Both the position numbers and the translations under genes were made by a program. A stretch of DNA of 64,000 bases from Minisyncoccota bacterium (GTDB lineage: Bacteria > Patescibacteriota > Minisyncoccia > Phycocordibacterales > UBA2100), in contig JAYWCB010000001.1 of the NCBI GenBank assembly GCA_043780835.1, positions 35,896-99,895 on the forward strand, written 5' to 3'. The notes under the pieces are model-generated. The model ran no database searches. It saw only the letters and a program-made list of their open reading frames with translations, and had not been told where the DNA came from. Shown here one piece after another: positions 41,032 to 42,473 of the stretch; the stretch's first letter is position 1; the number at the start of each line of letters is the position of its first letter.

Positions 41032-41442
41032 TTATTTAAAGTTTAGAGGATTATAGCCGTTTTTCACGAAATTTCTAGTCGGTCCGTAAAGAGGATCCGG
41101 CAACTCATTCCACTCAAACCACGCCCACTGCCCTATTTCGCCGATCGCATCTCGAGCCTCGCCAGACACCCAATCCGCGACAAAATATGGAGTTACCCAG
41201 TGATGATCAAAAATATCATCCACTACCGATATTAATCGTACTGCTTCGAGGATTAAACCAGTTTCCTCTTCGGTTTCTCGAATTGCTGCGGCTTGAAGCG
41301 TCTCACCATATTCGACAGCTCCACCCGGTGGACACCACGTACCAACTCCGAATCCAAGTTTCTCTCGGCGACCGAGCAATACCTTCCCATTCCGAATAAT
41401 CCACACAGCAGTTCCAATACGAGGATATTTTTGTTCACTCAT
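41032..41442 (-). CDS. Nudix hydrolase
   Basis: Nudix box '[25 protein letters not shown]'. Its start overlaps the rdgB stop. Confidence 0.8.
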
Positions 41443-42032
41443 ACAAATTCTTTGAGAAGGATTTCTTGGGCCTTTGCAAAAGCCTTCGCTCGATGACTAA
41501 TCTCATTTTTTTCCGCTAGCATCATGACTCCACCGGCTTTACCGCTCTCGTCGTATATGAATATCGGATCCTGCGCCATACCGTTTGTGCCAATCGGCTC
41601 GTGCGCAATGGTCCCCCGCGCAATTCCCTCACACACGCGAACACGATCATCCTCCGGATCATAAATGGTTATAACCGAACGAAATTGGGCGCCTCTCATG
41701 CCATCTGGCACATCCACCATTTTTCCAATGATAAGAGAATGTCCATTATCGTGAGTCGGTGAGGTAATCGGTTTTGTATCCACTCCCGGCCAACCATTGA
41801 GTGCATCGATTTCAAGACCTGAGTCTTCGCTCAGAACAAGCTTTCCGCTCCATTTTCCATAAGACATCGCCTTAATGATTGAATTACCTTCGAATGTCCG
41901 CCCCGGCTCTGCAACGTCTCTTGTAATGCCGATATCATCAAGGCTCATCACGATAAAAGGTGTCCCCTCTAAGAGATTCTTAATTTCTGCGATTTTGCCT
42001 TTATTTCCTGTTGCTATGAGTAGTTCTCGCAT
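41439..42032 (-). CDS. rdgB: Non-canonical purine NTP pyrophosphatase (RdgB/HAM1/ITPase)
   Basis: 'LIATGNKGKIAEI' N-terminus and a Ham1 fold. Confidence 0.85.
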   Translation of the reverse strand: MRELLIATGNKGKIAEIKNLLEGTPFIVMSLDDIGITRDVAEPGRTFEGNSIIKAMSYGKWSGKLVLSEDSGLEIDALNGWPGVDTKPITSPTHDNGHSLIIGKMVDVPDGMRGAQFRSVITIYDPEDDRVRVCEGIARGTIAHEPIGTNGMAQDPIFIYDESGKAGGVMMLAEKNEISHRAKAFAKAQEILLKEFV

Positions 42033-42035
42033 AGT

Positions 42036-42473
42036 TTATGTGTTACAAACCCAGTCACTGTATATAACTCCATTTCGCACATGAACAAGTGCATGGGCCA
42101 CGTGAGGAGCCATTGGTGTAGGAAGACTGTCACATGCGAACCATCCGGCGTCATCGCATTTTTTAGGTTCCATGTTTTTTGGCTCGCCACTCCATTTCGT
42201 CGCCTTGAAGAAAATGTCTATATATTCAATGCCATCGTTATTGTGGAGAACATGTACTCCGTGCAGATCTTCCGGCTCGATATCTACACCAACCTCCTCT
42301 TTTGCCTCACGGATCATCGCGCTCTGTGCCGATTCCATGCCGTCTACGTGACCCGCAGGTAAATCATAGAATCCGTCGCGATAACCGGTATTCGCGCGTC
42401 TTTGCAACCAAACCCTTCCATCCTGTTCAAGTATAAGGAGCACTGCAACCGGCATTGTGAAGCGCTCCGCCAT
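42036..42473 (-). CDS. Nudix hydrolase
   Basis: Nudix box 'LPAGHVDGMESAQSAMIREAKEEVGV'. Its start overlaps the atpG stop. Confidence 0.8.
   Translation of the reverse strand: MAERFTMPVAVLLILEQDGRVWLQRRANTGYRDGFYDLPAGHVDGMESAQSAMIREAKEEVGVDIEPEDLHGVHVLHNNDGIEYIDIFFKATKWSGEPKNMEPKKCDDAGWFACDSLPTPMAPHVAHALVHVRNGVIYSDWVCNT

Follow-up and report, generated by a model that had tools for sequence, protein, structure and literature searches.

A nucleotide-hydrolase cassette between atpG and atpD in the F1Fo ATP synthase operon of a Minisyncoccota bacterium and its relatives

Why would a bacterium encode soluble nucleotide hydrolases in the middle of its F1Fo ATP synthase operon, between the genes for the gamma and beta subunits? 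The question is raised by a stretch of 64,000 nucleotides (nt) from a Minisyncoccota bacterium (GenBank assembly GCA_043780835.1, contig JAYWCB010000001.1, positions 35,896 to 99,895), referred to below as the window. Here, a Nudix hydrolase gene (Nud1), an RdgB/Ham1-family nucleoside triphosphate (NTP) pyrophosphatase gene and a second Nudix hydrolase gene (Nud2) lie between atpG and atpD. An earlier interpretation of the letters alone (the sequence-only reading) had called this trio a house-cleaning cassette that is almost certainly co-translated with the synthase subunits. On balance, we think it probable that the cassette consists of real, selected enzymes in a cargo slot, specific to this lineage, at the gamma|beta junction, that it forms the 3' tail of the atpB-to-atpG unit and cleans the cell of non-canonical purine NTPs, and that atpD and atpC have a promoter of their own as well. 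Open reading frames (ORFs) and Pfam matches confirm the three genes on the minus strand at the positions where they had been placed. Look-ups of the exact RdgB and Nud2 sequences of the window matched no gene record. The features on which the argument turns are the following (lengths in amino acids, aa):

42477..43391, minus strand: atpG, F1 gamma subunit (Pfam ATP-synt, 265 bits)
42036..42473, minus strand: Nud1, Nudix hydrolase of 145 aa (Pfam NUDIX, 65 bits)
41439..42032, minus strand: RdgB/Ham1-family NTP pyrophosphatase of 197 aa (Pfam Ham1p_like, 155 bits, full model)
41032..41442, minus strand: Nud2, Nudix hydrolase of 136 aa (Pfam NUDIX, 84 bits)
41048..41077, minus strand: promoter-like element TAGAAATTTCGTGAAAAACGGCTATAATCC in the 3' end of Nud2 (consensus scan, 10/12)
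39638..41026, minus strand: atpD, F1 beta subunit (Pfam ATP-synt_ab, 239 bits)

The cassette is conserved in related genomes. An atpG-anchored scan of species-representative genomes yielded 71 loci, nearly all from metagenome-assembled genomes labelled Kaiserbacteria, Paceibacterota, Parcubacteria or Patescibacteria, some with a generic 'Saccharibacteria' label. The window proteins were mapped onto these loci by tblastn, and L numbers denote the loci of relatives. The full Nud1-RdgB-Nud2 triple occurs in seven other assemblies (L001, L003, L004, L005, L006, L009 and L080). RdgB and Nud2 are found without Nud1 in L025 and L027, Nud2 stands alone in eight loci (L012, L014, L017, L018, L021, L023, L055 and L059), RdgB is present without Nud2 in L008, L016, L022 and L028, and L014, L015, L024 and L029 carry members of another Nudix group between atpA and atpG. 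Because the same arrangement is present in many independent assemblies, an assembly error, which the sequence-only reading had named as a way in which it could fail, is excluded. A nucleotide hydrolase lies between atpA and atpD in 24 of the 30 loci with an atpG identity of at least 64%, as against 1 of the 31 more distant loci. All tblastn matches to cassette proteins in the 71 loci fall inside two slots, atpA|atpG and atpG|atpD, and none in the flanks. A tree of atpA, atpG and atpD places the cargo in a single clade only, and in its outgroups the atpG-atpD junction is tight and canonical. With Nud2 and RdgB as anchors, the searches return to the same slot in further independent assemblies (L072-L078, L080, L081 and L082). 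Nud2 homologs down to about 50% identity are all located directly upstream of atpD; a 46%-identical homolog is not atp-linked, and its contig also encodes ribosomal protein L24e. A neighbour-joining tree of the slot Nudix proteins yields three position-specific groups: Nud1, right after atpG and with two deep subtypes; Nud2, right before atpD and the most widespread of the three; and NudAG, in the atpA|atpG slot. The slot is shown to be old in a Kaiserbacteria-like clade of Parcubacteria, which belong to the candidate phyla radiation (CPR).

The cargo is not limited to Nudix and RdgB proteins. In L002, an NTPase_I-T/YjjX protein (PF01931, 139.8 bits) replaces Nud1 and RdgB, after atpG and before Nud2. 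YjjX has a fold unrelated to that of RdgB, and E. coli YjjX has been characterised as an enzyme hydrolysing ITP and XTP. A YfbR-like HD 5'-deoxynucleotidase occupies the atpA|atpG slot of L008 and L012, and a CYTH triphosphate-tunnel protein the atpG|atpD slot of L045 (both by Pfam). Five unrelated families of nucleotide or triphosphate hydrolases have been recruited in all: Nudix, RdgB, YjjX-type ITPase, YfbR-like HD and CYTH. These occurrences show a slot strongly biased towards nucleotide (tri)phosphate hydrolases of unrelated folds, including a non-homologous replacement of an ITPase, and the house-cleaning interpretation has gained strength from both observations.

The slots of relatives also contain small helical or transmembrane ORFs (about 85-140 aa) that have no Pfam match and, with few exceptions, show no detectable relationship among themselves. 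In the atpA|atpG slot of L010, L016, L020, L030, L034, L038, L042 and L055, this is a helical, coiled-coil-like ORF of 110-140 aa outside any Pfam family, with detectable relatedness in only some pairs; it could be an unrecognised lineage-specific accessory protein of the ATP synthase. Between atpG and RdgB, where Nud1 otherwise sits, Pfam-less ORFs of about 107-129 aa are found in L003 and L004 (7368-7700), L008 (6920-7243), L016 (6920-7264), L022 (6920-7273), L028 (2265-2630) and L077 (3009-3398), and a related multi-transmembrane ORF takes the place of the small ORF in L009 and L027. In L034, a 95-aa membrane ORF is exactly duplicated between atpG and atpD, and a chimeric ORF (7259-8341) starts atpD-like and continues atpG-like; either the duplication is genuine and local or the assembly is wrong here. 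A Nud2 pseudogene was sought in the 456-nt gap between RdgB and atpD of L008, and no credible remnant was found there.

What do the three enzymes do? Both Nudix proteins carry an intact Nudix box of the pattern GX5EX7REUXEEXGU (GHVDGMESAQSAMIREAKEEVGV in Nud1), and their scores against PF00293, 65 bits for Nud1 and 84 bits for Nud2, lie above the gathering threshold of 21.1. Neither reaches a curated cutoff among the NCBIfam equivalog models. Against the MutT model TIGR00586 (cutoff 97.9 bits), the scores are 36.4 bits for Nud1 and 34.6 bits for Nud2; against the MutT model NF008044 (cutoff 148 bits), they are 43.1 and 36.7 bits. Assignment to subfamilies, which the sequence-only reading had proposed as a check, failed by equivalog; the tree gives the three position-specific groups, with Nud1 in subtype a of the orthologous group directly after atpG. 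The closest solved relatives of Nud1 are 4dyw from B. pseudomallei, RhNUDX1 and AtNUDX1; for the two proteins together, NUDT15 and MTH1 join this list. The AlphaFold2 model of Nud2 (predicted local distance difference test score 92.8) best matches AtNUDX1 in Foldseek, with a template modelling (TM) score of 0.88, a root-mean-square deviation of 1.3 Å and 34% identity. NUDT15 follows at a TM score of 0.87, and these two, RhNUDX1 and 4dyw span 0.85-0.88. Nud2 is thus predicted to adopt the alpha/beta/alpha Nudix fold. We infer that Nud1 and Nud2 work like small MutT/NUDX1-type pyrophosphohydrolases, although they fall outside the MutT equivalog. Alternatively, the substrate of one or both could be mRNA instead of free nucleotides, for instance leaderless transcripts with a 5'-triphosphate, which would make them RppH-like RNA 5'-pyrophosphohydrolases. 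Both do match NCBIfam RppH models weakly (24-27 bits), and the genome appears rich in leaderless mRNAs. Yet these scores are far under the cutoffs of 116-259 bits, the nearest neighbours in sequence and structure are NUDX1, NUDT15, MTH1 and MutT-type enzymes of small substrates, and their co-occurrence with RdgB and YjjX favours free NTPs as substrates, which makes an RppH-like role very improbable.

The RdgB protein matches PF01725 at 155 bits (its residues 4-190 cover positions 1-185 of the 186 in the model) and aligns over its full length with E. coli RdgB (1k7k, 2.6e-28); against the TIGR00042 equivalog it reaches 141.2 bits, a narrow miss of the cutoff of 145.35. In an alignment with E. 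coli RdgB and 12 slot RdgB proteins, the phosphate and metal motifs TGNxGK (N-terminal ATGNxGK), DSGL and SHR are kept. The base-pocket motif, canonically GFGYDP, reads GMAQDP in the window and its two closest relatives. The window protein belongs to a 197-aa subtype with GFGQDP (31 related clusters), while the canonical GFGYDP is found in 66 clusters.

A regular-expression scan finds exactly four intact Nudix boxes in the window, in agreement with the count of the sequence-only reading: those of Nud1, Nud2, an insert in LeuS and the ORF at 32768-33268. Pfam confirms the latter two. LeuS (23343-26210, plus strand) carries its Nudix insert at aa 396-515, right past the editing domain (PF00293, 52.5 bits, intact box). 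The fourth gene (32768-33268, plus strand) encodes 166 aa, matches PF00293 at 82 bits and lies 12 nt downstream of a methyltransferase gene. In the tree, neither belongs to any of the three atp-linked Nudix groups.

Are these genes maintained, and as a unit? Between L003 and L004, the ratio of nonsynonymous to synonymous substitution rates (dN/dS) is 0.027 for Nud1, 0.056 for RdgB and 0.022 for atpG; in nearly all other pairs, synonymous sites are saturated, so that this is the only usable comparison. These low values show that the cassette genes are under purifying selection. The ancestry of the cassette is nevertheless mosaic and at odds with that of the flanking genes. Compared with L001 and L006, the window has 98% identity in atpD, 93-94% in atpG and 73-79% in neighbouring non-atp genes. 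By contrast, Nud1 is 71% identical to that of L001 and 39% to that of L006, Nud2 58% and 44%, and RdgB 44% to both (43-45% to sister species). The closest relative of the window RdgB is P0025 (86%), located in L081 directly after atpG and without Nud1, and it is 60% identical to the RdgB of L025, whose atpG is only 64% identical. The closest Nud2 is that of L072 (77%, with atpD at 88%). At the DNA level, the window is homologous to L001 along atpG and Nud1, loses this homology across the body of RdgB and regains it in the 3' end of Nud2. We infer that recombination between the conserved genes on either side, atpG and atpD, has replaced cassette alleles while their function was kept.

Mosaic alleles and rapid turnover would also be expected of a defence or conflict module, acting by nucleotide depletion, signal degradation or as a toxin-antitoxin system, for which the atp operon is a safe harbour and the mosaic content the trace of an arms race. 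PemK/MazF-like toxin-domain proteins are indeed present in the atp slots of L015 (3806-4210) and L023 (6918-7370), and KomB, a Ham1-like protein of a solved defence complex, is a distant match of RdgB (1.7e-11). However, RdgB scores far higher with housekeeping RdgB (102 bits) than with KomB (47 bits), dN/dS is as low as that of atpG, and the cassette has no partner effector genes. Searches of PADLOC and PHROGs gave generic Nudix matches only (PDC-S07 in PADLOC, 37-45 bits), and the RdgB, YjjX, CYTH, HD and PemK-like slot proteins have no PADLOC match. We consider a defence role extremely improbable.

How tightly is the cassette tied to the synthase genes? The sequence-only reading had its junctions overlap by 1-4 nt. 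This holds for RdgB/Nud2, the sole overlapping junction of the cassette (4 nt, ATGA); atpG/Nud1 and Nud1/RdgB are separated by gaps of 3 nt (TAG-tct-ATG and TAA-act-ATG, respectively). The 5 nt that it counted between Nud2 and atpD are as described (TAA-cccat-ATG). No terminator-like site was found on the operon (minus) strand from 39250 to 46265, including the cassette, so an internal terminator does not speak against coupling; from atpG to Nud2, the operon strand also has no promoter-like site between the genes. A Shine-Dalgarno-like motif is absent before 16 of the 17 genes checked around the locus, the exception being a weak match, GGTG, upstream of atpG. Conversely, hexamers resembling a -10 box (at least five of six matches to TATAAT) end 6-11 nt before start codons nine times, against 1.09 expected. 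The near-absence of Shine-Dalgarno motifs and the enrichment of TATAAT-like boxes at this distance suggest that the transcriptome is largely leaderless or short-leader. In such a genome, translation of a unit's first genes would begin at the transcript's 5' end, and internal genes would rely on termination-reinitiation over very short junctions.

On its downstream side, the cassette contains a feature that the sequence-only reading did not have. The last 15 codons of Nud2 hold TAGAAA-16-TATAAT, with the -35-like TAGAAA at 41077-41072 and the -10 TATAAT at 41055-41050, ahead of the atpD ATG at 41026. In the consensus scan, it is the sole promoter-like match on the operon strand inside the cassette. 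The stretch ACTAGAAATTTCgtGAAAAACGGCTATAATCCTC upstream of atpD is kept at the nucleotide level in relatives whose Nud2 is only 44-64% identical. When 12 Nud2 genes are compared at positions where the amino acid agrees, the codon agrees as well in 79% of pairs within the last 15 codons and in 37% over the rest of the gene, and the fixed codons ACT-AGA-AAT and TAT-AAT-CCT include ones that are rare in the genome (AGA, 7% of Arg; ACT, 18% of Thr; CCT, 16% of Pro). The exact 17-base pattern is unique in the window (chance expectation 0.01 matches), and 18 of 82 loci have a single copy of it, at the corresponding site. In a metagenome scan with this element, 104 of 120 matches correspond to chance and about 15 are real sites, in particular that of contig L154.

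The element is also found where Nud2 is missing. In L020 and L154, it lies in the non-coding spacer before atpD; in L154, it fills the 37-nt atpG|atpD spacer: TAGAAA begins with the TAG stop codon of atpG, and the TATAAT lies 11 nt from the start codon of atpD. Where Nud2 has G(I/F)NP in place of GYNP, the embedded TATAAT is lost and the spacer is longer, with a -10-like box of its own; L009, for instance, has GCTATAATCCTC past its Nud2 stop codon. Cargo-free loci (L010, L024, L029 and L032) have -35- and -10-like boxes in the short atpG|atpD spacer. In L013, L019, L056 and L057, unrelated genes follow atpG, so that the operon is physically split at the atpG|atpD junction, and in L056 and L057 a hairpin and then a T-run come right after atpG, which we read as a putative terminator. 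As the Nud2 tail is at the same time a confident helical part of the AlphaFold2 fold, we regard it as dual-coded, for a peptide and for a promoter-like DNA element.

Two other ideas about this stretch were rejected. A frameshift does not account for the window-type Nud2 C-terminus, as codon-by-codon reading reveals a homologous peptide, LPxPLFxPT(R/K)NFxKxG(Y/I)NPL, in all Nud2 proteins. Nor is the conserved element an RNA structure, as shuffled sequences fold just as well as the 121-nt region (z = +1.07). A comparable site occurs further upstream: Tyr-Asn codons near the atpH C-terminus form a TATAAT about 17-30 nt upstream of atpA in L009, L008, L025, L059, L016, L010, L024 and L011, and the window has TATAAC at this site. 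In those relatives, it may be a second dual-coded internal promoter.

An internal promoter is one of the two features that, according to the sequence-only reading, would separate the cassette from the atp genes, and at the level of sequence there is a candidate for it, next to the split junctions of four relatives. Its claim of co-translation has partial support: the tight spacing and the terminator-free cassette hold, and coupling as one unit is not supported on the side of atpD, where the conserved promoter-like element precedes the gene. If the claim held in full, the locus would be a single coupled polycistron from atpB to atpC with serial translation, and the TATAAT a by-product of the conserved Nud2 C-terminal peptide. 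Junctions of 3, 3, -4 and 5 nt, an operon strand without terminator-like sites inside the cassette, and a Nud2 tail that is conserved and helical as a protein all fit this picture. It is nonetheless improbable in our view, given the constrained synonymous sites (0.79 versus 0.37) and fixed rare codons in the Nud2 tail, the presence of the element in the Nud2-free spacers of L020 and L154, the alternative -10-like box of TATAAT-less Nud2 variants, the boxes before atpD in cargo-free relatives, and the operons split at this very junction in other lineages.

The probable reading of a selected cassette in a cargo slot can then be put in mechanistic terms. The cassette would be transcribed as the 3' tail of the atpB-E-F-H-A-G unit and translated by termination-reinitiation across junctions of 3, 3 and -4 nt, while atpD and atpC would be transcribed both by read-through and from their own promoter, TAGAAA-16-TATAAT. 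The gamma|beta junction would be the natural boundary of two transcription units, and because of this it would tolerate and accumulate cargo. Cassette alleles may have been swapped through recombination between atpG and atpD, the highly conserved genes on either side. The enzymes would hydrolyse non-canonical purine NTPs (ITP and XTP; oxidised or otherwise aberrant (deoxy)NTPs) to nucleoside monophosphate (NMP) and pyrophosphate (PPi), and their level would follow that of a constitutive, essential operon, in an organism that presumably relies on nucleotide salvage.

Several observations weigh against this reading. The TATAAT of the window lies 23 nt from the atpD ATG, whereas 6-11 nt is typical of this genome; the weak point is that such a spacing predicts a short leader and not a leaderless mRNA. 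The C-terminal peptide of Nud2 is conserved at the protein level too, which attributes part of the DNA conservation to coding constraint. Promoter and co-transcription are both deduced from the letters. As to the substrates, the equivalog models lend no support to the assignment, as no NCBIfam cutoff is reached, and the RdgB of the window has lost both aromatics of the GFGYDP/GFGWDP pair (to Met and Gln). In ITPA, the equivalent residues stack on the base; because both are lost, the base specificity of the window RdgB may differ from that of the canonical enzyme. The species tree rests on atp proteins only. Finally, the slots also hold PemK/MazF-like toxins, small membrane or coiled-coil ORFs and, in L026, an insert of 3.5 kb, and because of this unrelated cargo part of the linkage may be permissive rather than functional.

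In its strong form, this last point becomes a different explanation: the junction is a tolerated unit boundary, where abundant Nudix and housekeeping genes landed by chance and hitch-hike without any functional tie to the ATP synthase. The internal promoter-like element, the physical split of the operon at the junction in some lineages, the high turnover and mosaicism, and a high Nudix background (four domains in 64 kb) would all be expected from it, as would unrelated cargo, to which a CDP-alcohol phosphatidyltransferase can be added next to the PemK-like toxins and the transmembrane or coiled-coil ORFs. Chance landing does not readily account for the recurrence of five unrelated nucleotide-hydrolase folds in the slots, for the replacement of RdgB in L002 by a non-homologous enzyme annotated as an ITPase, for the exact position that Nud2 keeps down to about 50% identity, or for the lack of cassette-protein matches in the flanks of the 71 loci. 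Hitch-hiking at a permissive site is therefore possible but unlikely. At the other end of the scale, the hydrolases might be functional accessories of the F1 sector, such that synthase activity needs the steady removal of ITP, XTP and damaged purine nucleotides. These might poison the ATP synthase or be made by it from IDP and XDP, in a setting of life on salvaged purines and of an epsilon subunit without the C-terminal domain of longer epsilons. Selection would then keep an ITPase-type activity (RdgB or YjjX) plus Nudix enzymes between the gamma and beta genes, with alleles swapped by recombination. We consider such a functional dependency between ATP synthase and NTP sanitation possible but rather improbable.

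The remainder of the cluster conforms to the canonical order that the sequence-only reading had given. Pfam confirms each subunit, and the whole cluster, atpB-E-F-H-A-G-[Nud1-RdgB-Nud2]-D-C, lies on the minus strand:

46305..47132, minus strand: atpB, F0 subunit a (Pfam ATP-synt_A, 132 bits, match from residue 53)
46009..46236, minus strand: atpE, subunit c (Pfam ATP-synt_C, 63.6 bits)
45542..45997, minus strand: atpF, subunit b (Pfam ATP-synt_B, 60 bits)
45135..45536, minus strand: atpH, subunit delta, short at 133 aa (Pfam OSCP, 30 bits)
43536..45104, minus strand: atpA, F1 alpha subunit (Pfam ATP-synt_ab, 278 bits, and ATP-synt_ab_C, 139 bits)
43397..43534, minus strand: possible single-pass membrane ORF of 45 aa, MPSEKPKSSRLFKILILIGILILIFPFLKVGYYFVKAYIRGALGA, in the atpA|atpG spacer (read from the sequence)
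39250..39537, minus strand: atpC, F1 epsilon subunit of 95 aa (Pfam ATP-synt_DE_N, 69 bits)

As listed, atpB starts with GTG at 47132, and the ATG at 47093 is the likelier start. A terminator-like hairpin with a T-run (about 47146-47124, minus strand) closes the fasciclin-domain gene upstream of atpB, and a TATTAT box (47108-47103) ends 9 nt ahead of this ATG. As hairpin, T-run and TATTAT all precede the ATG, the listed GTG is probably too far upstream, and the atp unit probably starts at 47093, just past the box and the hairpin. The synthase is trimmed: the epsilon subunit consists of the beta-sandwich domain only, without the C-terminal helical domain, and delta has 133 aa. The putative 45-aa ORF fills the 144-nt atpA|atpG spacer, from 1 nt past the atpA stop codon to 5 nt short of the atpG start; in the closest relatives, this spacer is shorter and repeat-like. 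Past atpC, the window has ORFs of 461 and 644 aa without a Pfam match. L074, L075, L077, L080 and L082 share a conserved neighbourhood at this position: a protein of about 600-650 aa outside any Pfam family, followed by a 99-aa RNHCP-domain protein.

The F1Fo operon is among the most conserved gene arrays of bacteria, and in this clade its gamma|beta slot has repeatedly recruited hydrolases of five unrelated folds. Such recurrence is a strong signal, from gene neighbourhood, of a tie between nucleotide-pool quality control and energy metabolism in ultra-small, salvage-dependent CPR bacteria. The locus offers three testable features in its dual-coded tail and promoter, its apparently Shine-Dalgarno-free, largely leaderless style of expression and the swapping of alleles between conserved flanks. 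Even if the coupling is only permissive, it remains useful for annotating atp operons of Parcubacteria and for predicting their transcription units.

How does the cassette relate to known systems? The window RdgB resembles RdgB (E. coli YggV), Ham1 and human ITPA; because of its full Ham1p_like match, its match to 1k7k and the conserved motifs, it likely shares their chemistry, the conversion of (d)ITP and XTP to NMP and PPi. It differs in its location, next to atpG and upstream of Nud2 and atpD instead of in a generic housekeeping setting, in its GMAQDP motif and in its score below the TIGR00042 cutoff. With MutT, MTH1, NUDT15 and plant NUDX1, the two Nudix proteins share intact boxes and, in the case of the Nud2 model, a structure that superposes on AtNUDX1 and NUDT15. 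Unlike these, they belong to no curated equivalog (35-43 bits against MutT cutoffs of 98-148), form position-specific groups tied to the atp operon and, in Nud2, have a dual-coded C-terminus. The YjjX-type NTPase_I-T holds in L002 the place of Nud1 and RdgB and is a functional analogue of RdgB, but it is of an unrelated fold and family and absent from the window. Extra genes within or at the edge of the F1Fo operon that are co-expressed and encode no subunit are known from atpI/uncI and atpZ, which are found at the 5' end of atp operons and encode small membrane proteins linked to assembly or ion handling. The extra genes of the window, on the contrary, encode soluble nucleotide hydrolases and lie between gamma and beta. 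A CPR Nudix module in an unusual essential-gene context has one precedent, the only related one found, in candidate phylum SR1, where a Nudix domain splits an aminoacyl-tRNA synthetase, IleRS (Kantor et al. 2013, PMC3812714). That case compares with the LeuS insert of the window, and it is a domain fusion in one protein instead of a set of separate genes in an operon slot. A full-text literature search returned no account of Nudix or RdgB genes in atp operons or between the gamma and beta genes. The enzymes are, in sum, new members of known families, and it is their arrangement that stands out: soluble hydrolases between the gamma and beta genes, in a slot that is conserved yet recombining, with the tail of a protein laid over a promoter-like element.

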